A stretch of DNA of 64,000 nucleotides from Candidatus Omnitrophota bacterium (GCA_013203315.1 JABMQJ010000018.1:11292-75291), one strand, 5' to 3'. Shown: positions 1 through 37,564, numbered from the stretch's first letter. A program made the numbers and translations. Notes: generated by a model from the sequence alone, not told the origin.

Positions 1-339
1 AGATCCATGATGTTTGTAACGCCCTATCCTGGAACGCAGTTATTTGAGGATGCCGTTTCTGGGGGGCGTATTGAAAGGAATAAAATACATGATTTTGTTA
101 TGTCCCTAGAAGATGCTAGGGATTTTACTATTAATTTAACCGATGTATTTACCGATGAGGGTTTAATTTTAAAACGCGCAGAGATGATAAAGAATGTGTG
201 TTCACGAGTTAAATTGGAATCCAAAGAACATTATAAGGCTAAAGTGGAAAGTTTGTTTGGAGATTTAGCCAACGATTATTTTGAAAACGAAGTATTATTA
301 AAACACCGCACCGAACACGGCGGTATGGATATTTTTTAG
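1..339 (+). CDS. C-terminal fragment of a B12-binding radical SAM protein; 5' end lies upstream of the window
   Basis: Frame is open from nt 1 with no start inside the window. The 'TPYPGTQLFEDA' segment resembles the C-terminal region of cobalamin-binding radical SAM enzymes and is paralogous to the C-termini of the full-length B12-rSAMs at 12218, 16020, 23693 and 36227. Confidence 0.4.
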   Translation, partial: RSMMFVTPYPGTQLFEDAVSGGRIERNKIHDFVMSLEDARDFTINLTDVFTDEGLILKRAEMIKNVCSRVKLESKEHYKAKVESLFGDLANDYFENEVLLKHRTEHGGMDIF

Positions 340-344
340 AGACT

Positions 345-1061
345 ATGAAGATATTATCAGTAATCTGTGCACGATCAGGTAGCAAGGGATTGAAGAATAA
401 ATGCGTGACTAGGATTGGAGATAAGATGGTCATCGAGTACTCCATTGATTATTCGCTTTCTCTGGGAAATGACGTAAAGACGGTTGTATCAACGGATATC
501 GATGAGGTGATAACTTATTGTAAAGTTAATGGAGTTGATTACATAGCAAGGGATGAGAGTTTGTGTGGAGATAATACCAAGATCGAAGATGTCCTGGCTG
601 ATGCAATTAAAAAAAAGGGAAGAGGGCGCACATGTTGTAGCCTTGTTTACGGCAACATTCCAGTACGCTATCCACGAATGTTTCACAAGGCAGTGAGGTT
701 TCTGGAGGATAATATCGATTACGATGCAGTAATCAGCATGCAAAGGGTGGAGAAGTTTCACCCGGATTGGATGTTCCCATATAACAATGGACTCTTACCA
801 AAGATGGAAGAGGTCCACTATAGAAGACAAAGTCTATCTCCTAAAATGATACCCGACGGCCATACGCTATTATTCAAAATCAGGAAATTTGTGACAAAAC
901 ACAAAGGAATCCGTCCGTATCGTAAAGAATATAGATATTCCATCTTTGGAGATAAAATCAGGTCGTTAACGACAGATAAACTAATTATTGATATTGATAC
1001 GAAAAAAGACTTACATCTTGCCGAAGCATTCTTACAGGCAAAAAGGTCTTATAAGAAATGA
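345..1061 (+). CDS. Acylneuraminate cytidylyltransferase-family protein (CMP-nonulosonate/ulosonate synthetase-like, CTP_transf_3)
   Basis: N-terminal 'ICARSGSKGLKNK' is the characteristic NeuA/PseF/KdsB-type nucleotide-binding loop. Length is about 238 aa. Confidence 0.7.
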   Translation: MKILSVICARSGSKGLKNKCVTRIGDKMVIEYSIDYSLSLGNDVKTVVSTDIDEVITYCKVNGVDYIARDESLCGDNTKIEDVLADAIKKKGRGRTCCSLVYGNIPVRYPRMFHKAVRFLEDNIDYDAVISMQRVEKFHPDWMFPYNNGLLPKMEEVHYRRQSLSPKMIPDGHTLLFKIRKFVTKHKGIRPYRKEYRYSIFGDKIRSLTTDKLIIDIDTKKDLHLAEAFLQAKRSYKK

Positions 1062-1077
1062 ACGATAAGGAAGTGGT

Positions 1078-2100
1078 TTGAAAATGTACAGATTTGATAA
1101 TCATATTGCTGCTTATGACGAATCGCGGCGCTACAATCGCAAAGGAGAAATAGCAGCCTTCCCTCCTTATGTTACTTTTGAACTGGGAAATAGCTGTAAT
1201 TTTTCGTGCATTATGTGCCGTAAGACCTACATTAAGGAAAAGAAAGAAGAGCTAGATTTTTCAGTATTTAAGAAATGCGTAGACGAAATATCAAATTATG
1301 GAAGTCTGGTGAGATTTATAGGTTACTGCGAGCCGCTTCTCTATAGCAAAATAAAAGATGCTATACGATACGTAAAGAAAAAAGGACTACGTTTGCATAT
1401 TACGACAAATGGTAGCCTTTTAAACAGAGAGATGATAAATGCAATACTCGAAAACGAAGTAGATAGCGTAATTTTTTCTTTTCAAGGATTTACGCAAGAA
1501 GAAGATTGCTTTATGCGAAATATCTCTTGTAAAACCTACTCTAATGTAGTGAATAAAATAAAATTGCTGCATAAAAGTAGAAAATCTGAAAAGCCATATA
1601 TTACCATAAGTACCACAATCACAAGTCGTGATAATCCGGAATATGAAACTGAATTTATAAAAAGACATATGTGTTATGCGGACCAAGTTCAAGTTACTGG
1701 AGCCACGCATTTTGCGTTTATCGAGGATGAGTCCGGTATAAGAGATATAGAGAAAAAACTGGGGCTCAATAAGCCGCGAAAGCTGAAAAATGTGAAATGT
1801 TTTTTAACTAATTATGAGATGAAAATTGCAGAAAATGGAAATGTTTATATGTGTTGCGGTTCATTTACCGATGAACTTAATATCGGCAACATAGAGAAGA
1901 ATACTCTCTTTAATATGTGGCACTCCGAAAAAGCTATGAAAATTAGGGAAACGTTGGCATTCGGCGATCTGGATAAATTCAAGAACTGCAGGGCTTGCCA
2001 GATACGCTACGACTATGACAAAATAGGTAATACGATAATGAATACGATGAAGGGAAAGAACAAAAAAAAGAAGATGGAACTCTATGCAGAAGAAAGATAG
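1078..2100 (+). CDS. Radical SAM protein with C-terminal SPASM/twitch-like Cys cluster
   Basis: CxxxCxxC motif 'CNFSCIMC' near the N-terminus. C-terminal 'CCGS...NCRACQIRYDY' Cys-rich region. RBS AAGGAAG upstream. Confidence 0.65.
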   Translation: MKMYRFDNHIAAYDESRRYNRKGEIAAFPPYVTFELGNSCNFSCIMCRKTYIKEKKEELDFSVFKKCVDEISNYGSLVRFIGYCEPLLYSKIKDAIRYVKKKGLRLHITTNGSLLNREMINAILENEVDSVIFSFQGFTQEEDCFMRNISCKTYSNVVNKIKLLHKSRKSEKPYITISTTITSRDNPEYETEFIKRHMCYADQVQVTGATHFAFIEDESGIRDIEKKLGLNKPRKLKNVKCFLTNYEMKIAENGNVYMCCGSFTDELNIGNIEKNTLFNMWHSEKAMKIRETLAFGDLDKFKNCRACQIRYDYDKIGNTIMNTMKGKNKKKKMELYAEER

Positions 2101-3241
2101 TATAGAAACTTTTCAACGCAACACAAAAGCAATTACGTATTGCACGCGGTGCCTTATGCCCTCGACTCGACCGTGGATTAATCACAACGAACACGGTGCC
2201 TGTAACGCCTGCGAGAATGCCGAGGCCAAAAAAAGAAACATAGACTGGAAGGCAAGATGGAAAGAGCTCGAGAAGATATGCGATAAATACAGATCAAAAG
2301 GCGATACATTTGATTGCATCGTTCCTTGCAGTGGCGGGAAAGACGGTTCTATTGTTGCCTGGAAACTGAAACATGAGATGGGAATGCACCCTTTGTGCAT
2401 AACACTTGCACCACAACTTCCCACAAAAATAGGAATAGAGAATTTGCACAATTTCATAAATTCCGGGTTTGATCATTTATTGATTACACCAAACCCGCAA
2501 AATGAGAAAAAGATCGCTCTATTTGGAATGACTGAACAGGGAAGGCCTCGATTAAGCACCGTGCTTGGACAAACCACTGCTTTGGTGAACGCGGCAGTCA
2601 AGTTTAAGATCCCTCTTATCGTGTACGGCGAAGAAGGGCACAGCGAGTATGGAGGCGTTACCCATATGGGTACAAAATCGCACTTCACAAAAGAAGAAAG
2701 AATACAGCTTTATTTCAGTGGTAATGACCCTGACAAAATTGCCGAAAAGATAGGGATAAAGAGAAAAGACCTTCCGTGGATGCGTTTTCCGACACTACAG
2801 GAGCTACAGAGCGTAGGAATTCTATGGCTTCACTGGTCATATTTTGAAAAATGGAATCAATATGAGCACTATCTGCTTGCCAAGCGGCATTGCGAATTTA
2901 AGACATTACCCCAGCGCAGCATAGGTACGTATACAAATTTTGCGCAACTTGACGATGATATGCAAGACTTGCATGTTTATTTTATGTTTTTAAAATTTGG
3001 ATTTGGAAGGACAACCTCCGATGCATGCATAGATGTGCGCAGGGGAGCGCTTGATAGAAAACAGGCGCTTGCATTAGTAAGAAGATATGATGGAGAATAC
3101 CCAGAATCTTTAATCCCACATTTTCTAGACTATTTTAGCATGACGAAAGAACAATTTGACAGCATCATTGACAAGTGGGCAAATAGAGAAGTTCTGACAA
3201 AAGTAAATGGGATTTGGAAACTAAAAGAACTACCTTCTTAA
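2084..3241 (+). CDS. N-acetyl sugar amidotransferase (WbuX/PseA-like PP-loop amidotransferase)
   Basis: N-terminal zinc-ribbon 'CTRC...CNAC' followed by the PP-loop 'CSGGKDGS'. Directly followed by HisH-like and HisF-like genes, the classic WbuX-WbuY-WbuZ arrangement. Confidence 0.7.
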   Translation: MQKKDSIETFQRNTKAITYCTRCLMPSTRPWINHNEHGACNACENAEAKKRNIDWKARWKELEKICDKYRSKGDTFDCIVPCSGGKDGSIVAWKLKHEMGMHPLCITLAPQLPTKIGIENLHNFINSGFDHLLITPNPQNEKKIALFGMTEQGRPRLSTVLGQTTALVNAAVKFKIPLIVYGEEGHSEYGGVTHMGTKSHFTKEERIQLYFSGNDPDKIAEKIGIKRKDLPWMRFPTLQELQSVGILWLHWSYFEKWNQYEHYLLAKRHCEFKTLPQRSIGTYTNFAQLDDDMQDLHVYFMFLKFGFGRTTSDACIDVRRGALDRKQALALVRRYDGEYPESLIPHFLDYFSMTKEQFDSIIDKWANREVLTKVNGIWKLKELPS

Positions 3242-3252
3242 GAGGATACCAG

Positions 3253-3870
3253 ATGGTTTCTATCGTAAATTATAAGATGGGAAATATCCGTTCGATACAG
3301 AACGCGTTGTCGTATCTGGGTGTTGACTCTCGTGTGATAGATTCGCCCGAGGAGATATTGACCAGTAAGAAACTGATTCTTCCGGGAGTCGGTTCTTTCC
3401 GTGTTGCCATGGAGCACATACGGGCGATGAAGCTCTTTGAGGCCCTGAATGAGGCTGCATTAAAACAAGGAGTTCCTCTCCTTGGTATCTGTTTAGGAAT
3501 GCAGTTATTGGCAACTGAAGGTGAAGAGGAAGGCCCTACCAAGGGTTTTGGCTGGATTCCTGGCAGGGTAAAACGCTTTTCACCTGAAAGATTATCCATA
3601 AAGGTGCCGCACATAGGTTTCAATACAGTATATTTTGAGCCCAAATCCAAAACTCTATTTGAAGGGTTGGAAACTTGCGCTGATTTTTATTTCGTCCATA
3701 GCTACAGAATGATATGTGAGGAGCCCGAAAAATGCGTTTCATCATGGGCAGATTATGGTGAACGTTTTGTAGCCAGCGTAGAGCATCGCAATATCTTCGG
3801 TACTCAATTCCATCCGGAGAAAAGCCAAAGCAACGGCCTGACAGTGCTTAAGAATTTTTGTGCAATTTAA
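3253..3870 (+). CDS. Imidazole glycerol phosphate synthase HisH-like glutamine amidotransferase subunit (WbuY-type)
   Basis: Class I GATase motifs ('GVGSF', 'GICLGMQLL', 'HSY', C-terminal 'FGTQFHPEKS'). Start placed at the ATG after RBS AGAGGA rather than the upstream-extended ORF beginning at 3214. Confidence 0.75.
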   Translation: MVSIVNYKMGNIRSIQNALSYLGVDSRVIDSPEEILTSKKLILPGVGSFRVAMEHIRAMKLFEALNEAALKQGVPLLGICLGMQLLATEGEEEGPTKGFGWIPGRVKRFSPERLSIKVPHIGFNTVYFEPKSKTLFEGLETCADFYFVHSYRMICEEPEKCVSSWADYGERFVASVEHRNIFGTQFHPEKSQSNGLTVLKNFCAI

Positions 3871-3880
3871 GGTGTAATAA

Positions 3881-4711
3881 ATGGCAAAGAACCGTCTAAT
3901 CTTTACTTTGTTGATGCAGGAAGGGACTTACATGCTGAGTCGAAATTTTTCTCTCCAATCAGTAGGTGGGTTAGACTGGATAAAAGAATTCTATAATTTC
4001 GACGCTATAACTTTTTCTATTGACGAGCTTATCGTATTAAATGTAGAAAGAGGAGTGAGAAAAATCGATGAATTTTCGAAGAATCTAGCGGAATTAAACA
4101 AAGGTTGTTTTATGCCTTTGGCTGTCGGAGGAGGCATACGGACAATGGAACACGCCTACTCTCTTTTGAATGCGGGAGCCGATAAATTGATTATAAACAC
4201 CCCTTTGATTGAAGAGCCAAAATTTGTAAGTTCACTGGTTAAGACCTTTGGTAGCCAATGCATCATTGCTTCTATTGATTATAGAGTGAAAAAAGACGGT
4301 GACAATACGGTTTGTATCCGTAACGGATCTCACCCTACAGGTAAAGGGGTGGATGAAGTTGTAAAAATTGCCAGAAATCTTGGTTGTGGAGAAATTTACC
4401 TCACTTCTATAGATAAAGATGGAACAGGCGAGGGGCTTGATTTGGAATTAATTAGACAAGTTACGTCTACGGCCACAGTTCCGGTAATCGCTTCTGGCGG
4501 GGTAGGCAAATTTGGACATTTTACGGAGGGCTTATTACAGGGTAAGGCCGAAGCGGTTTCAACAGCCAACCTTTTCAACTTCATAGAGGATGGATTAATC
4601 GAAGCCAGATCAGATATGCAGAAAGAAGGAATAAAAATGGCTAGCTGGAATTTTAGTTTTTATAGTACAGTTCCGGAAAAAGTCGGATATAGTAAAAAAA
4701 GAAGCCAATAG
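3881..4711 (+). CDS. Imidazole glycerol phosphate synthase cyclase HisF-like subunit (WbuZ-type)
   Basis: TIM-barrel HisF signatures 'GGGIRT' and 'ASGGVG'. Adjacent to the HisH-like gene. Confidence 0.75.
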   Translation: MAKNRLIFTLLMQEGTYMLSRNFSLQSVGGLDWIKEFYNFDAITFSIDELIVLNVERGVRKIDEFSKNLAELNKGCFMPLAVGGGIRTMEHAYSLLNAGADKLIINTPLIEEPKFVSSLVKTFGSQCIIASIDYRVKKDGDNTVCIRNGSHPTGKGVDEVVKIARNLGCGEIYLTSIDKDGTGEGLDLELIRQVTSTATVPVIASGGVGKFGHFTEGLLQGKAEAVSTANLFNFIEDGLIEARSDMQKEGIKMASWNFSFYSTVPEKVGYSKKRSQ

Positions 4712-4759
4712 CATGATTGCTATCGATACATAAAAATAGAATTAGCACTTCGCAAAAAT

Positions 4760-5764
4760 ATGAAAGGAAAGTTTTTTATGAAATGCGGCATTACTCAAAA
4801 CATAGCAAAAAATCTCGTTTTTATTGATGGTATTACTCGTAGCGGCAAGTCAGTTTTTACAGGGATAATACCTTCATTGAGAGATTTTGAACATATACAA
4901 TTTTATCTCCTGATGGAGTTAATGATACCGGCTGTTTCTCTTGGCCTTACGGATGCGGAATACGTAAAAACTGTACTTCGCCTCCATATGGGCGAAGTCG
5001 CATATAATTTGTTATTGGCCAGAGGAATGAATTTCAGGTATGAAGATGAAACAGGGGTTTTGAATTACAAAGATCCTCAAGTTTACTACGAACGCCTAGC
5101 AAGGCAGGAGGGTGATAAGATAATCGAAGACTTGCTTTGCCATAAACGTTTTATCCCTTTCCATACACATGATTTACTTGTAAATCTAGAACATCTTAAT
5201 AAGATGGATATCGACTATAAAATGATATCGGTATTTAGGCACCCAATAGACAATAGTCATTCATGGTGGACGCGGGGCTGGGGAGAGCGTTTTGGCGTTG
5301 ACCCCAGGTCGTTTACTTTTTGCATCGATTACGAAGGAAAGTTAGTGCCATGGTATGTAGCAGGATTTGAGAAAGAATGGCTAGAATTAAATCCCAAGGA
5401 AAGGTGTATAAAAACCTCAATAAGCCTTATAAAGCGTGCCGTTAATCAATATAAAAATACGTCAGAAAAGAATAAAATTCACCTAATAAAGTTTAAGGAT
5501 TTTGTTCAAAATCCTCACGAGCAGATAGAAAAAATTTGTGCTTTTCTTAATACAAACACCACGCAACATACAGAGCATTTTATCCGCAAGGCCAAATGCC
5601 CGCGCGTGCTGAATCTCAAAGAAAGAGATTCGAATCTCGCAGAATTAAAGTCCGGTGTTAAGAAGGAAATATTTGAGTTGTTGTTAGAAACGTCCGAATC
5701 ATATGAGACTGATTTCTACGGCTTGCATAAAAAAGAAAATCTAGCGAAAGAAAAGATGGTTTAA
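4760..5764 (+). CDS. Sulfotransferase-family protein
   Basis: 5'-PSB-like 'GITRSGKS', 3'-PB-like 'RHPIDNSHSWW', and C-terminal 'IKFKDFVQNPHEQIEKICAFLN' resembling the sulfotransferase 'YEDL..DP...I..I..FLG' region. The true start may be the second ATG at 4778, which has RBS AAAGGAAAG. Confidence 0.5.
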   Translation: MKGKFFMKCGITQNIAKNLVFIDGITRSGKSVFTGIIPSLRDFEHIQFYLLMELMIPAVSLGLTDAEYVKTVLRLHMGEVAYNLLLARGMNFRYEDETGVLNYKDPQVYYERLARQEGDKIIEDLLCHKRFIPFHTHDLLVNLEHLNKMDIDYKMISVFRHPIDNSHSWWTRGWGERFGVDPRSFTFCIDYEGKLVPWYVAGFEKEWLELNPKERCIKTSISLIKRAVNQYKNTSEKNKIHLIKFKDFVQNPHEQIEKICAFLNTNTTQHTEHFIRKAKCPRVLNLKERDSNLAELKSGVKKEIFELLLETSESYETDFYGLHKKENLAKEKMV

Positions 5765-5769
5765 ACACA

Positions 5770-6729
5770 ATGGCTAAAAGTGTTGTAAAAAAATATTTTG
5801 AAGAAAATGCAGAATCCTGGGTGGCAGATGGCTACGGAGACGACGGTTATACTTATCCTGTTGGTCACCATCGAACACGCATTGTCCTTAAAGTGCTCTC
5901 AGGGTTAGGCAACTCATTAAAAGTCGTCGATTTAGGTTGCGGAGGAGGTCAGCTTTCTTGCGCATTAGCTGAAAGCGGGCACACCGTTGTCGGAATAGAC
6001 CAATCTGACAAAATGGTTAATATTGCTCAGAAAAACCGAAGTACCTTACCAGCAAAACTTCAGAAAAGAATTAACATAATACGTTGCCCGATAGAAAGTA
6101 ACAATCTTAAAGAGCATTCTTTTGACGCCGTAACGGCAATGGGTCTTATAGGATATCTACGCGATGACAATATACTTTTTAAAATTGCGCACCGGTTATT
6201 AAAACCAAACGGCATTTTTTTAGTGTCATGCAGAAACAGACTTTTTAACATGGTAAGCATAACACCCAAGACGAAAAGAGAGATAAGAAGCAAAACTGCT
6301 ATGCCTTTAATATCAGAGCTGGAAAGCCTGTATAAAACTGTCTCGAAAAAAGATGCTGACGAGCTGGTGCAAAGGTTTAAACACATCACTGCCAGCTTAC
6401 CGAACAAGACAATGTATGGCAAGATGGACATGTTGTCTCCGGCGGAAAAACTTAACGCGAATCCCTATCGCACACAAGTCGAAGCGCGTCAGCATACACC
6501 AAAAAATTTATTGCGCACCGCTATGAAATTTGGTTTTTCCAATAAAGCGTATTACGGCGTTCATCCGCACATAATTGCTCCGCCTGCGAACCGATTGTTA
6601 CCGCCTGGTATTTTTAACAAAATTTCAAATTGCCTGGAAGCACTGGAGCACTTACCTGTTAGTTTAATATGGAGTTCTGTTTTTATAGGTGTTTTTAAGA
6701 AGAAAAAAGAGAAGAATCATGAAAAATGA
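5770..6729 (+). CDS. Class I SAM-dependent methyltransferase
   Basis: Motif I 'VVDLGCGGGQLS' and overall Rossmann methyltransferase layout. Confidence 0.65.
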   Translation: MAKSVVKKYFEENAESWVADGYGDDGYTYPVGHHRTRIVLKVLSGLGNSLKVVDLGCGGGQLSCALAESGHTVVGIDQSDKMVNIAQKNRSTLPAKLQKRINIIRCPIESNNLKEHSFDAVTAMGLIGYLRDDNILFKIAHRLLKPNGIFLVSCRNRLFNMVSITPKTKREIRSKTAMPLISELESLYKTVSKKDADELVQRFKHITASLPNKTMYGKMDMLSPAEKLNANPYRTQVEARQHTPKNLLRTAMKFGFSNKAYYGVHPHIIAPPANRLLPPGIFNKISNCLEALEHLPVSLIWSSVFIGVFKKKKEKNHEK

Positions 6730-8731: not shown

Positions 8732-8742
8732 AAGAGGTATAT

Positions 8743-11005: not shown

Positions 11006-11127
11006 ATCTATTGAAAGTGCTGATCAAAAAAATAGCAATGTTTTTTGCTAAATATTTTTCAAACGGGAAAAAAAATGATTCGACTCCACCGGATGATTAT
11101 TACCCTCTTTTTTAGAAAGGAAACTTT

Positions 11128-13888: not shown

Positions 13889-13890
13889 TT

Positions 13891-16016: not shown

Positions 16017-16019
16017 AAC

Positions 16020-20367: not shown

Positions 20368-20378
20368 GATCATATCAA

Positions 20379-23686: not shown

Positions 23687-23692
23687 GCAAAG

Positions 23693-25213: not shown

Positions 25214-25225
25214 GGTAGGTGCAAT

Positions 25226-27048: not shown

Positions 27049-27121
27049 TGGCTTGCATATTTAGCGGCTGATAATAGTTAGGCATTTTTAAGTTTTTTAT
27101 AAAAAGAAAGAGGTGTCGACG

Positions 27122-29092: not shown

Positions 29093-29103
29093 GTAATAAC
29101 AAA

Positions 29104-31020: not shown

Positions 31021-31760
31021 GTCCGAAAAGGGATACCGAGAAAGATGATGTAGTGATACTTTGCGGAGGCATGGGCACGCGCCTGCGTGAAGAAACGGAA
31101 ACAAAGCCTAAGCCAATGGTGGAAATAGGCGGAAAGCCGATATTATGGCACATTATGAAGTATTATGCAGCTTATGGATTTACGAGATTCATTTTGGCTC
31201 TCGGATATAAAGGCGCTTATATCAAGGATTATTTTCGTGATTACAACAATGAAAAACAATGGGAAATCGCATGCGTCGATACCGGCCAAAAAACCCTTAA
31301 AGGCGGCCGCATAAAAAGATTGGAACCCCATATAAAAAGCAAAAATTTCCACCTTACATACGGTGATGGCCTGGGTAGGGTGGACCTTAAGCGCCTGGCG
31401 AACTTCCACTTTTCGCGTAAAAAAATAGGCACAGTTACCGCCGTTCGCCCGCCATCGCGCTTTGGGGAATTGCTGTTAAAAGGCAATTATGTTAAGGAAT
31501 TCGAAGAAAAACCGCAACTCACCAGAGGATATATAAACGGCGGATTTTTCATATTTAATAAGAAACTTCTTGAATATCTGACGCCCGATGAAAATTGCGA
31601 TCTGGAATTCGGCGCGTTACAGAAACTAGCATCCGAGGGCCAACTTACCGCATATAAGCATGACGGTTACTGGCAGTGCATGGATACGGCCAGGGACATG
31701 AATTACCTTAATGAGTTATGGGAAAACGGCGACCCGCCATGGAGGATATGGAACAAATGA
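31017..31760 (+). CDS. rfbF: Glucose-1-phosphate cytidylyltransferase
   Basis: 'VVILCGGMGTRLREETETKPKPMVEIGGKPILWHIMKYY' closely matches the RfbF/DdhA N-terminus. Length is about 247 aa. ATGA overlap with the upstream gene. Confidence 0.8.
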   Translation: MSPKRDTEKDDVVILCGGMGTRLREETETKPKPMVEIGGKPILWHIMKYYAAYGFTRFILALGYKGAYIKDYFRDYNNEKQWEIACVDTGQKTLKGGRIKRLEPHIKSKNFHLTYGDGLGRVDLKRLANFHFSRKKIGTVTAVRPPSRFGELLLKGNYVKEFEEKPQLTRGYINGGFFIFNKKLLEYLTPDENCDLEFGALQKLASEGQLTAYKHDGYWQCMDTARDMNYLNELWENGDPPWRIWNK

Positions 31761-32809
31761 AGCCCACTGTATTAATTACGGGGAACACAGGCTATATCGG
31801 GACGGTCATGGCGAAGCACTTTAAAGAGGCCTCTTACAATGTCGTGGGCCTGGATAATGATTTATACCGTGAAAACTCTCTCTTTTCTTCCGGCGATGAG
31901 GCAAAGCCGCAAAAACAAATTATAAAGGATATCCGACAGGTTACAGCAAATGACCTAGAAGGCGTAGACGCAGTGATACATCTTGCGGGGCTCTCAAATG
32001 ATCCCCTGGGGGAGTTGAACCCCGGACTAACCGATGAGATAAATTGCGTATCCACATTGCAGTTGGCACGTTTGGCAAAGTCAAAAGGGATAAAACGCTT
32101 TCTTTTTTCTTCTTCCTGCAGTATTTATGGGATATCTTCCGTAGATTTTTCAATAAATGAGACAGGGCGCCTTAAGCCCCTGACCGCCTATGCCAAGGCA
32201 AAGGTTGATGCGGAATCAGGACTCGCAAAACTTGCGGATGAAAATTTTCATCCTGTTTTTATGCGTAACGCGACAGTCTACGGCCTCTCCCCGAAGATGA
32301 GGCTGGATCTTGTCGTGAATAACCTTACCGCATGGGCATATTTAAAGGGTGAAATTGCAATAATGAGCGACGGCACGCCATGGAGGCCTATTGTGCACGT
32401 CGAAGATCTGTCCCGTGCCTTCAAAACGGTTCTTGAGGCGCCACATAAAAAAATTCATTGCCAGGCTTTTAATATCGGGTCAAATACCGAGAATTATCAG
32501 GTTAAAGATATAGCGCTAAAAGTCGGAAGTGCCGTACCCGAAGCCAGCATAAAGATACTGAATAAAATGGGACCCGATGAAAGAACCTATAAAGTAGATT
32601 TTTCCAAGTTTAAAGACGCGTTTCCGGAATTTAAATGGCTATGGAACGTAGAGAAAGGAATAGAAGCGCTTCTGGATGCATACAAAAGATATTCCTTGAG
32701 CGTAGATGACTTTGAATCTGACAAATATTTCCGCGTAAGGACAATTAAGTCACTACTTGAATCAGGCAAAATAGATGAAAATCTTAAAATTAAGGGAGGC
32801 CAGGCATGA
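31748..32809 (+). CDS. NAD-dependent epimerase/dehydratase-family SDR (candidate CDP-hexose 4,6-dehydratase or epimerase)
   Basis: 'VLITGNTGYIGTVMAKH' Rossmann motif and 'YAKAKVDAE' YxxxK. Start at the ATG after GGAGGAT at 31748. Confidence 0.6.
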   Translation: MEQMKPTVLITGNTGYIGTVMAKHFKEASYNVVGLDNDLYRENSLFSSGDEAKPQKQIIKDIRQVTANDLEGVDAVIHLAGLSNDPLGELNPGLTDEINCVSTLQLARLAKSKGIKRFLFSSSCSIYGISSVDFSINETGRLKPLTAYAKAKVDAESGLAKLADENFHPVFMRNATVYGLSPKMRLDLVVNNLTAWAYLKGEIAIMSDGTPWRPIVHVEDLSRAFKTVLEAPHKKIHCQAFNIGSNTENYQVKDIALKVGSAVPEASIKILNKMGPDERTYKVDFSKFKDAFPEFKWLWNVEKGIEALLDAYKRYSLSVDDFESDKYFRVRTIKSLLESGKIDENLKIKGGQA

Positions 32810-33255
32810 TAGAAGGGGTAAAGTTAGTTCCGCTTAAAAGAATATCCGACGAAAGAGGCATGATCATGCATATGCTAAAATGCACGGATCCGCATTTCGA
32901 ACAATTCGGAGAAGTGTATTTTTCTACGGCCCATCCCGGTGTTATCAAGGGTTGGCACGAGCACACCAAACAAGTCCAGTTCTACGCGGTAGTAAAAGGC
33001 ATGATAAAGCTTGTCCTTTATGACGCGAGAAAAAAATCCCCAACCCACGGTGAGCTCATGGAACTGTTTATCGGAGACGACAATTATCAGCTCGTACGAA
33101 TTCCTGCCGGCATAATTAACGGCTACAAAAATATAGGCACTGAGACGATAATTCTGGCGAATTGCGCAACGCTACCACACCAACCAGATGAGATGCTTCG
33201 ATATGACCCGCACGGGAGTAAAGTACCTTATAAGTGGACAAGGGCAGATAAGTAA
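32806..33255 (+). CDS. Cupin-fold sugar epimerase/ketoisomerase (RmlC/FdtA-like)
   Basis: 149 aa. 'DERGMIMH...FGEVYFSTAHPGVIKGWHEHTKQ' resembles the RmlC/WxcM-like cupin core. GGAGG RBS and ATGA overlap. Confidence 0.5.
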   Translation: MIEGVKLVPLKRISDERGMIMHMLKCTDPHFEQFGEVYFSTAHPGVIKGWHEHTKQVQFYAVVKGMIKLVLYDARKKSPTHGELMELFIGDDNYQLVRIPAGIINGYKNIGTETIILANCATLPHQPDEMLRYDPHGSKVPYKWTRADK

Positions 33256-33256
33256 T

Positions 33257-34162
33257 ATGAGTAGCAGTGAAAGCAAACTTCAAGCCGTAGTGATCGGCGC
33301 AAACGGTTTAGTAGGCAGGTGCGTCATTAACCTGCTTACACAAAAGGGCATAGAGTGCATAGGCACATGCAACAAGAGGCCACGCAATAAGCTTTTCAAG
33401 CTGGATATTACAGACCCCGAAGAAATAAACAGGTTTTTTTCTAAATTTTCGCCCGAAGTAGTTTTTCATTGCGCAAATCTTGCGGGTGGCGTAAACTTTT
33501 GCCAGTCAAACCCAAAAATCGCCACTGATTTTCACCTTAATGCCACCAAGAGAATAGGGAACGCCTGCAACGCCAATAACGCAACTATGTTTTTCATATC
33601 AACGGACTACGTATTTGACGGCACGAAGGCCCCCTACAAAGAGAATGACCCTACAAATCCTTTAAACTTATACGGAAAGCTGAAGCTTGAAGCGGAGGAA
33701 TGGATAAAAGGCAACATTTCGAAGTTTGTAATAGTTAGGACAACCAACGTTTACGGCTGGGACCCCGAAACGGTAACCCCGAATTATGTTATGGGCTTAT
33801 ACAGAACGCTTAAAGAGGGTAAACCGTTTAATGCGCCGTCGTTCCTTCGCGGAAATCCCACATACGCAAACGATTTGGCAGAGGCAATTGTAGAATTGTA
33901 CGTAAAAAATGCACATGGGCTTTTTCATGTGGTCGGAAAAAGTTTTGTCGACAGGCTCGAATGGGCAAACGCCGCATGCGAGATTTTTGAGTTAAACAAA
34001 TCATTGCTGAATGAAACAAAGGTGCCGTCGCCGGACATGGTTCCGAGACCACTGGAATCAAACCTTACTTCCGACAAATTTATGCGAGCCTATAAAAGCA
34101 CTTTGCACGACCTTGCAAGCGGTCTCAAGCTCATGAAATCCGACATGAAAACTTTAGGTTAA
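33257..34162 (+). CDS. RmlD-like NAD(P)H-dependent 4-keto-sugar reductase (SDR)
   Basis: 'AVVIGANGLVGRCV' N-terminal Rossmann motif, 'YGKLKLEAEE' YxxxK, about 300 aa. Position after the cupin epimerase mirrors RmlC-RmlD order. Confidence 0.5.
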   Translation: MSSSESKLQAVVIGANGLVGRCVINLLTQKGIECIGTCNKRPRNKLFKLDITDPEEINRFFSKFSPEVVFHCANLAGGVNFCQSNPKIATDFHLNATKRIGNACNANNATMFFISTDYVFDGTKAPYKENDPTNPLNLYGKLKLEAEEWIKGNISKFVIVRTTNVYGWDPETVTPNYVMGLYRTLKEGKPFNAPSFLRGNPTYANDLAEAIVELYVKNAHGLFHVVGKSFVDRLEWANAACEIFELNKSLLNETKVPSPDMVPRPLESNLTSDKFMRAYKSTLHDLASGLKLMKSDMKTLG

Positions 34163-34164
34163 AA

Positions 34165-35067
34165 ATGCAACAACCCCTTTTTACCGTAATAATTTCAACC
34201 TATAATCGTAAAGACATATTGCCGCGCGCGATTGAAAGCGTCTTGAACCAGACCTTCCCGAATTTTGAGCTTTTGGTAATTGACAATGGCTCGACGGATT
34301 CAACCGCTTCCGTTTGCGACCGCGTAAAAGATGATCGCTTCACGTATGTCCGGAATCCCAAGCCAACAGATTCCTGCGACGGCCCAAGAAACCTCGGCAT
34401 AGAAATGGCCCAGGGTAACCTCATCGCTTTTCTCGACGACGATGACATATGGTATCCCACGAGGCTTGAAAAAGTAAAAAAGGCATTTGAGGAAAATCCG
34501 GACGTATCCTGCGTGTGCCATAATGAAAATAAAAACGTGGACGGTAAGATAACCGAAACATTCAGGTATGGGCCGTGGTCACCTGATTTGTACGAACGCT
34601 TGCTCTACGAAGGGAACTGTCTCTCTTCCTGTGCGACAACGATAAAGCGTGATTTATTGAAGAAACTGGACGGTTTCGATTTGAGAAAAGAATTTTGTAA
34701 GGCGGCAGATTACGATTTGTGGATAAGAATGGCCAAGAGAGGCGTGAAGATTTATTTTATTGATGAGCCGCTCGGAGAATTTTTCCTGACAGGGCATAAC
34801 TGGAGTACGGCCGATCCGACATTCAGAGGAAAGCTTGCCAATCTTCTCGAAATGCACATTCTTCAACATGAAAAAAAGCCCATTTTACAAATTTCAAAAA
34901 GAGGCATGTGGCAACTATTTAAACTAAATGCGATTGCCGGCAAAAGATATACGAAGGCCGGGGATTACAGAAACGCCCTGCGTCATTATCGTAAAGCAGC
35001 TTTATTTGTCATGAAAAAACCAAGTTTAATAAGTACCCTATTCTCAGGAACGGTCAAAAATGATTGA
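34165..35067 (+). CDS. Glycosyltransferase family 2
   Basis: 'FTVIISTYNRKDILPRAIESVLNQTFPNFELLVIDNGSTD...FLDDDD' GT2 DxD architecture. Confidence 0.7.
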   Translation: MQQPLFTVIISTYNRKDILPRAIESVLNQTFPNFELLVIDNGSTDSTASVCDRVKDDRFTYVRNPKPTDSCDGPRNLGIEMAQGNLIAFLDDDDIWYPTRLEKVKKAFEENPDVSCVCHNENKNVDGKITETFRYGPWSPDLYERLLYEGNCLSSCATTIKRDLLKKLDGFDLRKEFCKAADYDLWIRMAKRGVKIYFIDEPLGEFFLTGHNWSTADPTFRGKLANLLEMHILQHEKKPILQISKRGMWQLFKLNAIAGKRYTKAGDYRNALRHYRKAALFVMKKPSLISTLFSGTVKND

Positions 35068-36181
35068 AAATAAATTACCCGCATACAAGAAGGAAAAATG
35101 CACCTTTTTCGCCTTGGGGAGAAATGCAATGTATGCTGCCTGCAACGCACTGGGCCTCAAAAAAGGCGACGAGATTCTTACCCCTGCATTTGATTGTGAC
35201 GGGTCATTGCAACCCTTCAGGGTCTTGGAGTATAAACCAATATTCTTCCGTTCCGACCCGCGAACGTTTTCCGCGGATTTAGAAGACATAAAAAAGAAAA
35301 TTACCCCAAAAACGAAATTACTGCACATAATAAACCATTTTGGAATGCCGCAACCTTGGAATGACATCTTGAGCCTTCAAAGAGAGGTAAATATTCCCAT
35401 CATGGAAGATAATGCCTATTCGCTTTTTTCAAGCCTTGACGGGAAACCCTTTGGAACGTTCGGGGACGCGGCAATATTTTCACTACGAAAAAACTTACCA
35501 CTCGCTGATGGAGGAATGCTACGCATCAATAACCCGCGATACAAATTCACTGAAGATTCAAAAAAAAGTAAATTCATTTATAAAGAGGACTTGGAAAGTC
35601 TCGCAGTTGTAATAAAAAATAGAGTTGGTTTAAGTACAGTTTTCCGTTCTTTGAGGCAGGGACCCCCTCCGCCGCTTTATTCGAATGGCAACCTGGAATA
35701 TCCCGTCTGGGCCGGCCGCGATCATATCGGAAAAGAATTTTCCTGCAATTACACAAGATCCATGTCACGATTTTCAAGACAAGCCTTGGATACGTTTTTA
35801 CACAATGACTACGAGGCTATGATAGAAAAAAAACGCAAGTTCTATTCGATTCTGTCAAAGGGCCTTAAAGGTATTAGAGGGATAGAGGTTTTGTGGCCGG
35901 AATTACCGGAAGGTATAGTGCCTTTCTCATTATCATTTTTGGTATCAAACCACCGAGATGCATTTTTCGACTTTTTGCGAAAAAAATACGACGTTATGGC
36001 CTGGCCGACGTTATCTGCATTAGTGCTGGAGCAACTTAAAGATTTCCCCGATGTAGAACTTTTGGGAAGGCGTCTCTTACAACTAAATTTACCTTCGGAT
36101 AAGGTAAAGAAAACGAATTTTCCGCAGTATATCGAAAATGTCGTAGAGGATATCCACAAGTTAGCGCAAAAATATATTTAG
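35060..36181 (+). CDS. DegT/DnrJ/EryC1/StrS-family PLP-dependent sugar aminotransferase/dehydratase
   Basis: 'GRNAMYAACNALGLKKGDEILTPAFDCD' and 'AIFSLRKNLPLADGGML' resemble DegT-family motifs including the Lys-bearing segment. Length is 373 aa. Confidence 0.45.
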   Translation: MIENKLPAYKKEKCTFFALGRNAMYAACNALGLKKGDEILTPAFDCDGSLQPFRVLEYKPIFFRSDPRTFSADLEDIKKKITPKTKLLHIINHFGMPQPWNDILSLQREVNIPIMEDNAYSLFSSLDGKPFGTFGDAAIFSLRKNLPLADGGMLRINNPRYKFTEDSKKSKFIYKEDLESLAVVIKNRVGLSTVFRSLRQGPPPPLYSNGNLEYPVWAGRDHIGKEFSCNYTRSMSRFSRQALDTFLHNDYEAMIEKKRKFYSILSKGLKGIRGIEVLWPELPEGIVPFSLSFLVSNHRDAFFDFLRKKYDVMAWPTLSALVLEQLKDFPDVELLGRRLLQLNLPSDKVKKTNFPQYIENVVEDIHKLAQKYI

Positions 36182-36226
36182 TTACACTAGTGCGGAGTTT
36201 CACAAAAAAGTAGAATAGGTTTAATT

Positions 36227-37558
36227 ATGAAAAAAATATTATTAATTATGCAATCCCCCGTAAACAAAGAGAATTACATTAACGTCTTGCCTCCTCTGGG
36301 AATATTATACATTTGCTCTTTTCTTAAATCCAAAGATATACCCTCAGATATCATTGACTACAATGTGTCGAATATCGATTATTCTGTGGTTCAGGATTAT
36401 GACTTGATAGGTTTTAGCATAAACTGTGCAAATATTACCAATACCCTAAACATGGCAAAGGCTATCAAAAAGCAATATGGCAAGGAAATAATCGTAGGTG
36501 GTCCTCAGGTAACGGGTGATCCGACATTTTTCTTAGACAAGGACTATATCGATGGTGCAGTTGTTGGTGAAGGAGAACACGCCTTATATGAATATTTAAT
36601 AAAAGGAAAAGTAGTACCAGGTTTGTATTTAAAAGAAAAAAATAAAAAAATAGTTTTTGGAGAACCACGTCCAGGTAATAAAAACTTAGATTCCTTACCG
36701 TTTCCGGCTTTCGATAAGATTGATATAAGAAAATATAATACGGTTCCCAAAAAAAGAAATCCAGTCTCGACAATAGTTACATCCAGAGGTTGTCCGTTTA
36801 AGTGTATATTTTGTTTTCATTCGTTGGGATATTCATTCAGGTCACGTAGTGCCGAGAATATTGTTGATGAGATAGAGTGGCAGGTCAAAAATTTTGGTGT
36901 AAAAGAAATTTGTTTTCTAGATGATAATCTAAGCCTGGATATCAATAGAGCGAAAAAAATATTCAAAGGTATCATAGATAAGAATCTCGATGTAGTGTTT
37001 CAGATACACAACGGTATCAGGGTAGATAAGGTAGATGACGAGTTGTTAAGCTTGATGAAACAAGCAAGATTATGGTTTATGATTATATGCCCCGAAAGCG
37101 GCGACTCGAAAACCATAGAATTGATAAAAAAAGGATTTGATAAAGAAATTGTTAGAAAAGTTGTTAAAACCAGTAAGAAAATGGGATTTTTTACATATGC
37201 CTGTTTTATGATTGGATTCCCATGGGAAACCGAAGAACGCATAAAGAGAACCGTTGATTTCGCCAAAGAATTAGACACAGATATGGTACAATTCTCGAGG
37301 GTAACCGCATTCCCTGGAACTGAATTATACGATATGTGTAATTTAAATTATAAAATAGAAAAAGATAGCGGCTTATTCTACGGTGATCCCAGATTCAATA
37401 TAAGCAAGTTAACTGATTCCAGAATAAATCAAATAATTAAAGAAGCATATAGAAAGTGTTATTTAAAACCAAGAAAGATACTAAAATTATTAACATCTTT
37501 GAAATGGCGAAACGTATACTTATTAGCAAAATATTCTGTAACAACCAAGAGCATCTAA
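36227..37558 (+). CDS. Cobalamin (B12)-binding radical SAM protein
   Basis: 'TSRGCPFKCIFCFH' radical SAM triad after a B12-binding-like N-terminal domain ('IIVGGPQVT'). Confidence 0.7.
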   Translation: MKKILLIMQSPVNKENYINVLPPLGILYICSFLKSKDIPSDIIDYNVSNIDYSVVQDYDLIGFSINCANITNTLNMAKAIKKQYGKEIIVGGPQVTGDPTFFLDKDYIDGAVVGEGEHALYEYLIKGKVVPGLYLKEKNKKIVFGEPRPGNKNLDSLPFPAFDKIDIRKYNTVPKKRNPVSTIVTSRGCPFKCIFCFHSLGYSFRSRSAENIVDEIEWQVKNFGVKEICFLDDNLSLDINRAKKIFKGIIDKNLDVVFQIHNGIRVDKVDDELLSLMKQARLWFMIICPESGDSKTIELIKKGFDKEIVRKVVKTSKKMGFFTYACFMIGFPWETEERIKRTVDFAKELDTDMVQFSRVTAFPGTELYDMCNLNYKIEKDSGLFYGDPRFNISKLTDSRINQIIKEAYRKCYLKPRKILKLLTSLKWRNVYLLAKYSVTTKSI

Positions 37559-37564
37559 TCCAAA

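Follow-up and report, generated by a model that had tools for sequence, protein, structure and literature searches.

Fom3, of the fosfomycin pathway, is a methylcobalamin-dependent class-B radical SAM (rSAM) C-methyltransferase that methylates CMP-activated 2-hydroxyethylphosphonate at an unactivated sp3 carbon, and its gene is coupled to that of the cytidylyltransferase Fom1. GenK and GenD1 (gentamicin) C-methylate aminoglycoside sugars, their substrates being free pseudo-oligosaccharide antibiotics of actinomycete secondary metabolism. AprD4 (apramycin; PDB 6FD2) is a radical SAM 1,2-diol dehydratase of an amino-sugar substrate with a cobalamin-free B12-like domain, and MgmA (PDB 9CCB) uses cobalamin to methylate an sp3 carbon in a protein side chain, that of a glutamine of methyl-coenzyme M reductase. 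BtrN (butirosin; PDB 4M7T) is a twitch rSAM dehydrogenase with a carbohydrate-type substrate, and BlsE also acts on carbohydrates. The legionaminic acid pathway of Campylobacter jejuni consists of LegB, C, H, G, I and F with PtmE and PtmG/PtmH modification; to our knowledge, the characterised pathway includes no rSAM.

The window analysed here (64,000 nucleotides) comes from an uncultivated and presumably anaerobic Omnitrophota bacterium. Its positions 1-37558 encode six rSAM enzymes in full and, of a seventh, the C-terminal end, surrounded by sugar-nucleotide and glycosyltransferase genes. We read this region, with a probability of about 0.6, as the left part of a cell-envelope glycan super-locus in which three sugar-precursor modules each have their own rSAM tailoring enzymes. 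The super-locus is more than 74 kb long and uses one strand only; in the window, the gene-like ORFs of at least 100 aa are tightly packed and all on the + strand, and no intergenic gap of the rSAM region exceeds 122 nt. The first 32 genes include all seven rSAM genes and the following 23 include none, a clustering with a binomial probability of 3e-8 to 4e-5 if rSAMs are taken to make up 1-3% of genes. An assembly artefact is excluded because independent JGI, Logan and NCBI assemblies have the matching gene arrangement. The features of the region are these:

1..339, + strand: G1, last 112 aa of a class-B rSAM of 479 aa (full gene L001:6817-8256)
345..1061, + strand: G2, CMP-sugar synthetase-like cytidylyltransferase (PF02348, 48 bits vs cutoff 22.6)
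1078..2100, + strand: G3, BtrN-like twitch rSAM (PF04055 and PF13186)
2084..4711, + strand: G4-G6, WbuX N-acetyl-sugar amidotransferase with HisH-like and HisF-like subunits (TIGR03573, PF00117, PF00977)
4760..6729, + strand: G7 sulfotransferase and G8 class-I SAM methyltransferase (Pfam)
6689..8731, + strand: G9, conserved protein of 680 aa in the legionaminic-type operon (44% full-length identity to an L089 protein)
8743..11005, + strand: G10 GFO/IDH/MocA oxidoreductase and G11 Ldh_2 dehydrogenase, first cassette genes (Pfam)
11128..12231, + strand: G12, GDSL/SGNH hydrolase or acyl-esterase (PF13472)
12218..13888, + strand: G13, class-B rSAM (PF02310 and PF04055)
13891..16016, + strand: G14 cytidylyltransferase (PF02348) and G15 GT2-cytidylyltransferase fusion (PF00535 and PF02348)
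16020..17492, + strand: G16, class-B rSAM (PF02310 and PF04055; best PDB match AprD4, 1e-17)
17459..19378, + strand: G17, 639-aa GT-B-fold nucleotide-sugar enzyme, cassette member (AF2 model, Foldseek)
19375..20367, + strand: G18, BtrN-like twitch rSAM (PF13186 and PF04055)
20379..22175, + strand: G19, fused TMD-NBD ABC exporter, cassette member (PF00664 and PF00005)
22172..23686, + strand: G20, 504-aa protein faintly similar to the polysialyltransferase and Capsule_synth families (sub-threshold Pfam only)
23693..25213, + strand: G21, class-B rSAM (PF02310 and PF04055)
25226..31020, + strand: GT2, class-I methyltransferase, AsnB-type amidotransferase fused to a WbuX-like domain (this segment 35% identical to G4), PMT_2/ArnT-like GT-C (Pfam)
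31017..36181, + strand: NDP-6-deoxy-aminohexose module of six genes, namely nucleotidyltransferase, 4,6-dehydratase-type SDR, RmlC-like cupin, RmlD-like reductase, GT2 and DegT aminotransferase (Pfam)
36227..37558, + strand: G32, class-B rSAM directly after the DegT aminotransferase (PF02310 and PF04055; best PDB match AprD4, 5e-20)
37565..38695, + strand: FemAB-type (Acetyltransf_6) acyltransferase (PF13480), probably the last gene of the amino-sugar module

The original prediction of seven rSAM genes among sugar genes in about 37 kb was confirmed by Pfam, by the sugar-gene context and by the CxxxCxxC motif, present exactly once in each of the seven proteins. All of them pass PF04055 (G1 through its full-length gene), and the five said to be of the cobalamin-binding type (G1, G13, G16, G21 and G32) do have the class-B architecture, with PF02310 and PF04055 above gathering score in the four complete ones. 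The first 339 nucleotides had rightly been called a partial B12 rSAM: the complete 479-aa gene lies in L001, from the same contig (overlap 13241/13241 identical), and it has both domains (precomputed Pfam) and CxxxCxxC at residue 205. The fragment alone had no Pfam or NCBIfam match and no BLASTP match to the other rSAMs of the window, so the window alone does not allow this call to be verified. The motif check of the rSAMs found no DxHxxG, which does not discriminate, since known class-B enzymes also lack it. The window contains neither a cobalamin riboswitch nor a cobalamin gene that we could find.

None of the seven proteins (0/7) reached a curated NCBIfam cutoff. All scores were 2- to 6-fold under the cutoffs, and on these grounds membership in the bacteriochlorophyll, hopanoid, ladderane, RiPP and phosphonate equivalogs was rejected. 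In the three families that were traced, G1, G13 and G32, the orthologues belong to sugar pathways of several phyla. Identity among the five B12-type proteins is 24-30% (BLASTP), and at least three of their families have orthologues of their own, 60-80% identical, elsewhere; by sequence they are old, distinct families, each in its own sugar module. Iterative alkylation by five paralogs was therefore an over-reading: such divergence, separate orthologues and the spread over three different precursor modules argue for several different reactions on different sugars, not for repetition on one.

The rSAMs might instead mature a RiPP, a cofactor or a membrane lipid of the hopanoid or ladderane type and be merely co-located with the glycan genes. 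RiPP clusters often contain B12-rSAM and SPASM/twitch enzymes, the locus has an ABC_membrane-type exporter, and a 37-aa TTG ORF occupies the sole sizeable gap (11002-11115). However, this is very improbable, as the partial HMM similarities to ApyD, rSAM_ocin_1, ladderane rSAM and HpnJ/HpnR are all far under cutoff, the tight packing leaves no room for a credible precursor-peptide gene, the locus has no lipid, peptidase or cyclase genes, and the G1, G13 and G32 families retain their sugar-gene neighbours across phyla and rearrangements.

Turning to the glycan modules, the first would begin ca. 6.5 kb before the window, end at 8731 and encode a legionaminic-acid-type 5,7-diamino-nonulosonic-acid pathway. 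Its upstream part contains an SDR, LegC (TIGR04181, 471 against a cutoff of 420), a PglD/NeuD-family acetyltransferase (210 against 161), a PtmE-like nucleotidyltransferase (CBS-nucleotidyltransferase) and the NeuC hydrolysing 2-epimerase (465 against 236). There follow G1, the CMP-synthetase G2, the twitch enzyme G3, WbuX (TIGR03573, 338 bits, cutoff 203) with HisH and HisF, the sulfotransferase, the methyltransferase and G9. The set from LegC to WbuX/HisH/HisF, here in one operon, is what the locus shares with the C. jejuni and WbuXYZ systems; the class-B and twitch rSAMs, the sulfotransferases (PAPS-synthesis genes lie upstream on the same contig) and the 680-aa protein are additions, whereas NeuB/LegI was not found within 74 kb. 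By sequence G4-G6 would act in acetamidino formation. G9 has no Pfam or NCBIfam match; its counterpart in L089 is a 676-aa protein that ends a Leg operon.

The arrangement around G1 recurs in dozens of metagenome contigs, anammox bacteria among them, and the family (62-82% identity) comprises more than 120 clusters. Operons of the order LegC-PglD-NeuB-NeuC-PtmE-[B12 rSAM]-CMP synthetase-HisF/H-WbuX are found in Ca. Wujingus californicus (Brocadiaceae) and in many metagenome contigs. Of the 24 orthologous loci whose flanks are long, 23 have a CMP-synthetase; NeuB, NeuC and LegC occur in 20 each, and the WbuX/HisH/HisF genes in 16. A cytidylyltransferase (CTP_transf_3) stands directly 3' of the G1 orthologue in 45 of 60 loci; G2 is thus its conserved downstream partner, with a weak score against the PseF model (52 bits, cutoff 205). 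The AF2 model of G1 (pLDDT 86) has a predicted class-B fold, with MgmA, AprD4, TsrM, OxsB, CysS and TokK as top Foldseek matches.

Neither the window nor the 10 kb upstream contains a detectable NeuB synthase, so this genome is only a putative producer of a nonulosonic acid. As LegC, PglD, NeuC, PtmE and the CMP-synthetase are all there and G1 lies between the NeuC and CMP-synthetase genes, G1 could be imagined to replace NeuB/LegI, building the nine-carbon backbone by radical C-C coupling, and two other loci (L130 and L156) also have no NeuB. But these two derive from one metagenome, and NeuB could be elsewhere in the genome, the 74 kb covering less than half of the 158-kb contig. NeuB accompanies G1 orthologues in 20/24 long-flank loci, so the family is no general NeuB substitute, and we hold this replacement to be the least probable of the readings considered.

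In keeping with the reading as three tailored precursor modules, the second (8743 to ca. 25213) would activate another acidic sugar with CMP, transfer it and export the product. G13 is the core of a seven-gene cassette with two oxidoreductases, two cytidylyltransferases (one fused to a GT2), a GT-B protein and an ABC exporter. Its synteny, at 51-73% identity, extends over Omnitrophota, Brocadiales/Planctomycetia and Saganbacteria; it was found in 14 of the 16 assessable loci, often with NeuB genes nearby. The two oxidoreductases are syntenic and 53-73% identical in L004-L016, L021 and L024, G14 and G15 are 51-64% identical in all cassette loci, and the exporter is 44-61% identical in L008, L010, L011, L021 and L024. 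Orthologues of the hydrolase G12 (47-54%) occupy the equivalent position in L012 and L021, and one of G20 (38%) follows the ABC gene in L024. G17 has no significant sequence-family match, its family counts 824 representatives, and its AF2 model (pLDDT 91.6) matches NeuC/WecB 2-epimerases and VldE/OtsA GT-B transferases in Foldseek. The CxxxCxxC of G13 (C225/C229/C232) is invariant across its family, and an Omnitrophica MAG protein is a 100% match. In this genome the cassette contains three extra rSAMs (G16, G18 and G21), of which G16 is an insertion absent from that place in the other cassette loci.

G18 and G3 had been described as SPASM/twitch-type. With only 4 and 5 cysteines in the C-terminal domain, respectively, they are of the twitch type and not full 7-Cys SPASM proteins; the spacing is C-18-C-45-CxxC, which we take to be that of BtrN. 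BtrN, with which they have the single auxiliary-cluster Cys pattern in common, is the best solved relative of both (G18, 6e-13; G3, 1.8e-10, followed by BlsE), although these E-values of just 1e-10 to 1e-13 cover partial lengths and G3 and G18 are ca. 70 aa longer. In NCBIfam, the models of the tungsten-cofactor maturase and AhbD come nearest to them, with scores far under cutoff. The BtrN-like class favours alcohol oxidation over cross-linking, one of the chemistries that had been suggested. By analogy with BtrN, the two enzymes probably convert a secondary sugar alcohol into a ketone, needing neither oxygen nor NAD, and these ketones would be sites for amination or epimerisation. The one orthologue of G3 encountered (51%) lies next to the cassette in L012.

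The third module (31017 to 38695) would make an NDP-6-deoxy-aminohexose that G32 modifies after transamination and before N-acylation. The position of G32 right after the DegT aminotransferase is that expected for amino-deoxy-sugar tailoring, and in this the module recalls the amino-sugar C-methylation of GenK and GenD1; the likeness is one of gene position, and the setting here, among genes for nucleotide sugars and cell-envelope glycans in uncultivated anaerobes, differs from theirs. In bacterial contigs, orthologues of G32 (48-63%) have DegT, NTP_transferase, 4,6-dehydratase and FdtA genes as neighbours; another orthologue is found with similar sugar-gene neighbours in an archaeal contig that bears STT3.

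As to substrates, cobalamin use and reaction types, we infer that the five class-B enzymes would cleave SAM reductively, that the resulting 5'-deoxyadenosyl radical would abstract hydrogen from an unactivated sugar C-H, and that a methyl group would then most probably be transferred from methylcobalamin, by analogy with Fom3, GenK and MgmA. C-methyl-branched or chain-extended sugars would be the products. The window has three adjacent B12-rSAM/cytidylyltransferase pairs, which suggests that the enzymes recognise a CMP-linked sugar, much as Fom3 recognises CMP-HEP. This resemblance to Fom3/Fom1 comes from architecture and gene coupling; the cytidylyltransferases of this locus are members of the CMP-Kdo/CMP-NulO synthetase family (PF02348), the pathway is one of sugar acids instead of phosphonates, and PhpK-type models score far below cutoff.

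Alternatively, CMP- or NDP-sugars may be the substrates of cobalamin-independent or non-methylating radical chemistry in the B12-domain enzymes, for example dehydration of a 1,2-diol leading to deoxygenation, as with AprD4, epimerisation of unactivated carbons, or, as with HpnJ or OxsB, contraction of a ring or formation of a carbocycle. We consider this possible, though less likely. AprD4 is the best PDB sequence match of G1 (1.6e-24), G16 and G32, is tied with MgmA at 1.6e-14 for G13, and catalyses its diol dehydration free of cobalamin; OxsB (8e-10) is the second match of G21; and the highest NCBIfam similarities of the B12-type proteins are to BchE and HpnJ, both non-methylases, the latter acting on a sugar moiety. 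On the other hand, the methylase MgmA scores about as well as AprD4 for G1, leads its Foldseek matches and is the best PDB match of G21 (2e-13), most characterised class-B enzymes are methyltransferases, and for deoxygenation the locus already encodes SDR dehydratases and reductases of the ordinary kind. Identity to structures of the AprD4, MgmA and OxsB type is just ca. 14-22% (ca. 20% for AprD4), and no AprD3-type partner reductase was identified here. The NCBIfam AprD4 model gives 71-95 bits for G1, G13, G16 and G32 and 27 bits for G21 (cutoff 500), and on the side of MgmA the TIGR04014 model gives 68-117 bits against a cutoff of 360.

With no curated cutoff reached and MgmA and AprD4 about equally near, sugar tailoring by the rSAMs has good support, whereas for the B12-type enzymes C-methylation is no more than the likeliest chemistry; the label of C-methyltransferase is not established. 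The original prediction thus stands as an observation, and its interpretation is upheld for the architectures and the sugar context and not for iteration or the methyltransferase label.

Seven oxygen-sensitive radical enzymes within sialic-acid-like and amino-deoxy sugar pathways would mean a sugar chemistry new for bacterial surface glycans, most likely carbon methylation. That the glycan is of an undescribed kind agrees with our search of open-access and bioRxiv papers, which found none that connects nonulosonic, legionaminic or pseudaminic acids, O-antigen or flagellin glycosylation with rSAM enzymes. However, glycan loci with several rSAMs recur among uncultivated anaerobes, so the locus is not a one-off; in L171, for example, the single orthologue of G21 encountered (63%) adjoins an orthologue of G32.

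The ca. 55 genes of the window (GC ca. 0.40) are tightly packed and run throughout on the + strand, with seven radical SAM (rSAM) genes among the first 32 and none among the other 23. Taking a background rSAM share of 1-3% of genes, this clustering is far beyond chance. The protein encoded at 12218-13888 (G13, one of the seven) has a 100% identical counterpart in a 'Candidatus Omnitrophica bacterium' MAG, and it occurs on NCBI, JGI and Logan contigs that reach 158 kb in length. A JGI contig (L001) was identical to the window over all of the 13,241 shared bases, and a second locus of the source contig (L087) adds 10 kb upstream of the window. Since the identical protein and sequence are found in separate assemblies, the arrangement of the rSAM genes is real and independently assembled. 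The tRNA and Rfam scans of the window returned no tRNA and no Rfam match, cobalamin riboswitches included, and the promoter and terminator scans gave a signal no higher than the shuffled expectation.

Each of the seven rSAM proteins contains one CxxxCxxC motif, the signature of the [4Fe-4S] cluster that binds SAM. The radical SAM family PF04055 was recovered above its gathering score in all six genes that are complete in the window, and the B12-binding family PF02310 together with it in four (G13; G16, 16020-17492; G21, 23693-25213; G32, 36227-37558), at 54-71 bits for PF02310 against a cutoff of 32. For G1, the gene that ends at 339, both are precomputed assignments. Fragment 1-339 alone matched no family and, by BLASTP, none of the other rSAMs of the window; the upstream contig sequence shows it to be the C-terminal part of a 479-aa protein that combines a B12-binding with a Radical_SAM domain and whose AlphaFold model (pLDDT 86) superposes on MgmA, AprD4, TsrM, OxsB, CysS and TokK. 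By their domain content these five proteins have the class-B architecture, an N-terminal Rossmann-type B12-binding domain fused to an rSAM barrel, with cobalamin binding only predicted. AprD4 has the same B12-type domain and works without cobalamin. We know of no sequence motif that is diagnostic of cobalamin binding or methyl transfer; DxHxxG is absent from the B12-type proteins, as it is from known class-B members. The unusual density of rSAM genes in a glycan cluster, which was the starting observation of the original prediction, is therefore confirmed by Pfam architectures, CxxxCxxC motifs and independent assemblies.

The five B12-type assignments stood, but the remaining two genes (G3, 1078-2100, and G18, 19375-20367), which had been called SPASM/twitch-type, can be described more narrowly. 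Both exceed the gathering scores of PF04055 and PF13186 (SPASM), the latter with 45 and 51 bits. Their C-terminal domains contain five (G3) and four (G18) cysteines, spaced C-18-C-45-CxxC, which we take to agree with the pattern of BtrN, and neither has the seven-cysteine SPASM motif that goes with two auxiliary clusters. The closest solved relative of both is BtrN (1.8e-10 and 6e-13, partial matches), followed by BlsE. These features fit predicted twitch-type enzymes with a single auxiliary cluster rather than SPASM enzymes.

None of the seven rSAMs, the twitch pair included, reached a curated NCBIfam cutoff. The class-B equivalogs scored were BchE, HpnJ, HpnR, PhpK, TsrM, MgmA, AprD4, KedN5, BzaD, ArsL, ApyD and the ladderane rSAM, and the best scores were 112-189 bits against cutoffs of ca. 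480-750 for the top-scoring models. The highest similarities were to BchE, HpnJ, ApyD, PhpK-type models and MgmA, all of them (including the PhpK-type models, which are related to GenK/GenD1 and Fom3) 2- to 6-fold under the cutoff. The four complete B12-type proteins of the window are mutually only 24-30% identical, and the rSAMs belong to distinct families found in different modules, which argues against the iterative C-alkylation by paralogs originally envisaged.

That the rSAM enzymes belong to sugar pathways we can say firmly, with their chemistry left unfixed, and the idea of radical tailoring of sugars is supported by the sugar-gene neighbours that the traced families keep. For the B12-type enzymes we place C-methylation, by analogy, at just under even odds. 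It is favoured because most characterised class-B rSAM enzymes are methylases, because dehydratases and reductases of the conventional kind are already encoded in the locus, and because these rSAMs are repeatedly paired with cytidylyltransferases, a parallel to Fom3, whose substrate for methylation is CMP-tagged. The main rivals are dehydration, ring contraction and epimerisation: among solved structures AprD4, a cobalamin-free sugar diol-dehydratase, and MgmA, a cobalamin-dependent C-methylase, are about equally close to the B12-type rSAMs, so that the C-methylation of the original prediction is plausible but unproven. The twitch pair would most plausibly oxidise sugar alcohols in the manner of BtrN. 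A role of the rSAMs in RiPP or lipid modification is unlikely, as no gap could hold a precursor gene and the sugar-gene surroundings are kept from phylum to phylum. Within the rSAM region only one intergenic gap is of any size, and it contains a 37-aa ORF with a TTG start (11002-11115) that has no signs of a precursor peptide.

The family of G1 comprises more than 120 clusters, with members 62-82% identical. In Ca. Wujingus californicus, an anammox bacterium of the Brocadiaceae, the gene order is SDR, LegC, PglD, NeuB, NeuC, PtmE-like, B12-rSAM, CMP-synthetase, HisF/H, WbuX homologue and a 676-aa protein, and a metagenome scan provided 78 further loci of the family. Of the 24 loci whose flanks were long, 23 have a CMP-synthetase, and NeuB, NeuC and LegC are each found in 20; a cytidylyltransferase gene was located immediately 3' of the G1 orthologue in 45 of 60 loci. 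The source contig has a similar legionaminic-type operon. Upstream of the window LegC (TIGR04181, 471 against a cutoff of 420), a PglD/LegH-type N-acetyltransferase of the NeuD/PglD family (TIGR03570, ca. 211 against 161) and a NeuC/LegG hydrolysing 2-epimerase (TIGR03568, 465 against 236) all pass their models. WbuX passes TIGR03573 (338 against 203), PF00117 and PF00977 are found in the two genes after it, and the predicted WbuXYZ/PseA-type gene set for acetamidino formation (WbuX with HisH- and HisF-like partners) is complete. PF02348 was passed by the candidates for a CMP-nonulosonate synthetase of the LegF/PseF type (345-1061, 13891-14634 and the C-terminal half of 14631-16016), these cytidylyltransferases scoring only 52-61 bits with the PseF equivalog (cutoff 206). 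The operon closes with a 680-aa protein (6689-8731) that shares 44% identity with the 676-aa protein of Wujingus. In addition, the source contig has the twitch rSAM G3, sulfotransferases and PAPS-synthesis genes.

No window gene matched the Pfam family (PF03102) of NeuB/LegI, the synthase that joins the hexose to PEP; tblastn for NeuB was negative in the window and in L001 (about 8 kb upstream), and gene calls for the 10 kb upstream (L087) included no NeuB, which leaves the whole 74 kb without NeuB/LegI. Related operons mostly have NeuB between PglD and NeuC; on the source contig PglD and the PtmE-like gene overlap, which leaves no NeuB remnant. A general rule by which G1 replaces NeuB is ruled out, since the G1 family and NeuB co-occur in 20 of the 24 loci. 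One sulfotransferase (4760-5764) is found within the operon, and just upstream (L087:1223-4914) there are an APS kinase, a fusion of a pyruvate-kinase (PK) domain with ATP-sulfurylase, and a second sulfotransferase. The Brocadiaceae operon L089 likewise has a sulfotransferase and a PK-domain gene. The sulfation genes in and beside the operon suggest a sulfated glycan.

Nonulosonic acids (sialic, legionaminic, pseudaminic) cap bacterial surface glycans and govern phage, host and immune recognition, and their modifications known to us are N- and O-linked groups introduced by conventional enzymes. A conserved rSAM step in the pathway would bring carbon-level editing of the sugar skeleton and would also single out a concrete gene that may account for the C10 ulosonic acids, which are so far unexplained. 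In Magnetospirillum gryphiswaldense, mass spectrometry detected CMP-activated ulosonic acids whose backbone is extended to C10, and Methanococcus gave a trace of an extended-backbone ulosonic acid; these higher-carbon acids form a series spaced by CH2, the biosynthetic pathway of which is unexplained (PMC8157484; bioRxiv 10.64898/2026.04.20.719630). The S-layer glycans of anammox bacteria also contain undescribed nonulosonic-acid variants, of 261, 275 and 289 Da (bioRxiv 10.1101/2020.12.03.409086). For adding such carbons, the class-B rSAM of the legionaminic operon readily suggests itself as a candidate. Specifically, the G1 family would be a methylcobalamin-dependent C-methyltransferase acting on the legionaminic-acid backbone and would represent the route to CMP-activated higher-carbon (C10 and larger) ulosonic acids, a proposal to which we give roughly one chance in five. 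The substrate could be the CMP-linked sugar or its 6-deoxyhexose precursor, e.g., with the terminal C9 methyl becoming an ethyl, and the B12-rSAM/cytidylyltransferase pairs in the cassette around G13 may, by the same logic, perform a reaction of the same kind. If this is true, anaerobes, among them anammox bacteria, Omnitrophota and lineages of CPR and DPANN, would have a widespread, oxygen-independent means of surface diversification in the radical chain extension of sialic-acid-like sugars. Our full-text search of the open-access literature and bioRxiv found no paper tying rSAM enzymes to nonulosonic, legionaminic or pseudaminic acids, O-antigen loci or flagellin glycosylation. What is new here is the presence of built-in rSAM steps, widespread in uncultivated anaerobes and uncharacterised, in known nonulosonic-acid and deoxy-amino-sugar pathways. 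A conserved rSAM step of this kind would also yield new class-B rSAMs whose small, chemically defined, nucleotide-tagged substrates lend themselves to mechanistic enzymology and chemoenzymatic synthesis.

The G13 cassette has the order GFO-type oxidoreductase, Ldh_2 dehydrogenase, (GDSL), B12-rSAM, cytidylyltransferase, GT2-cytidylyltransferase fusion, 639-aa protein and ABC exporter. It was present in 14 of the 16 assessable loci with a G13 orthologue, often with NeuB close by, and its proteins are 51-73% identical across MAGs of Omnitrophota, Brocadiales/Planctomycetia and Saganbacteria. In the window, G16 and G18 are inserted into the cassette, and a 504-aa protein (G20) and G21 come after it. 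The 639-aa protein had no sequence-family match and no sequence-level match to a solved structure, either alone or as a 41-sequence profile, and is confidently predicted to adopt a GT-B fold (pLDDT 91.6). The fusion at 14631-16016, in which a GT2 is joined to a CMP-sugar-synthetase-type cytidylyltransferase, is kept in every cassette locus, and no characterised example of it is known to us. Beside the cassette of a Saganbacteria contig (L006:417-2747) there is a 776-aa GT2-radical SAM fusion, with CxxxCxxC at residue 446, that physically links glycosyl transfer with radical chemistry. Several cassette loci (L004:18423-21674, L014, L016 and L171:1373-3870) have a 580-aa HMGL-like protein (pyruvate carboxyltransferase/aldolase family) followed by a cytidylyltransferase, and in L004 a DHDPS/NanA-type aldolase comes after both. 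Such an arrangement may provide a CMP-activated keto-acid sugar without NeuB; the HMGL-like protein has no homologue in the window.

G32 is part of an Rml-like NDP-6-deoxyhexose module, where it comes after a DegT aminotransferase. Its orthologues (48-63% identical) adjoin DegT, NTP_transferase, dehydratase and FdtA genes on marine bacterial contigs and on an archaeal contig bearing STT3, often with two to four more B12-rSAMs nearby. In L171 a G21 orthologue (63%) adjoins that of G32, and this locus has three consecutive B12-rSAMs with a fourth after a DegT gene (6449-15358). Among the 72 loci of at least 15 kb, 39 had at least two rSAM homologues and 21 at least three, a count biased upward as each locus was chosen for carrying one family member. 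Glycan loci with several rSAM genes thus recur in uncultivated anaerobic lineages and are not the curiosity of one contig. Like L171, other contigs have sets denser still than that of the window: a Deltaproteobacteria MAG (L079) has seven rSAM homologues within 20.6 kb, and an archaeal contig with STT3 (L169:8001-12540) combines two B12-rSAMs with a SPASM enzyme next to amino-sugar genes.

Membrane glycosyltransferases of the lipid-linked-donor type are present in the window at unusual multiplicity, with five paralogues in a run (mutually 21-34% identical) and a sixth apart:

29104-31020, + strand, sixth PMT_2/ArnT-like GT-C
52870-54987, + strand, PMT_2/ArnT-like GT-C, first of the run
56073-57467, + strand, PMT_2/ArnT-like GT-C, second of the run
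57457-59199, + strand, PMT_2/ArnT-like GT-C, third of the run
59199-60776, + strand, PMT_2/ArnT-like GT-C, fourth of the run
60791-62404, + strand, PMT_2/ArnT-like GT-C, fifth of the run

The right part of the window (43649-46996 and 62391-64000) encodes a WecA-like initiating transferase, a Wzy_C/O-antigen-ligase-domain protein, a GT9 heptosyltransferase, a GmhB-like HAD phosphatase and an SDR epimerase, and given these LPS-type genes at least part of the glycan is probably LPS-linked. A 659-aa protein (27113-29092) combines an AsnB-type glutamine amidotransferase domain with a PP-loop segment resembling WbuX, which shares 35% identity with 2084-3241 over 130 aa, and may be a second, self-contained sugar amidotransferase. 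Other multidomain proteins include one with two tandem GT2 domains (46918-49200), to which the adjoining 49187-50209 is a paralogue (35-39% identical), and a GT1-DUF218 fusion (38799-40646).
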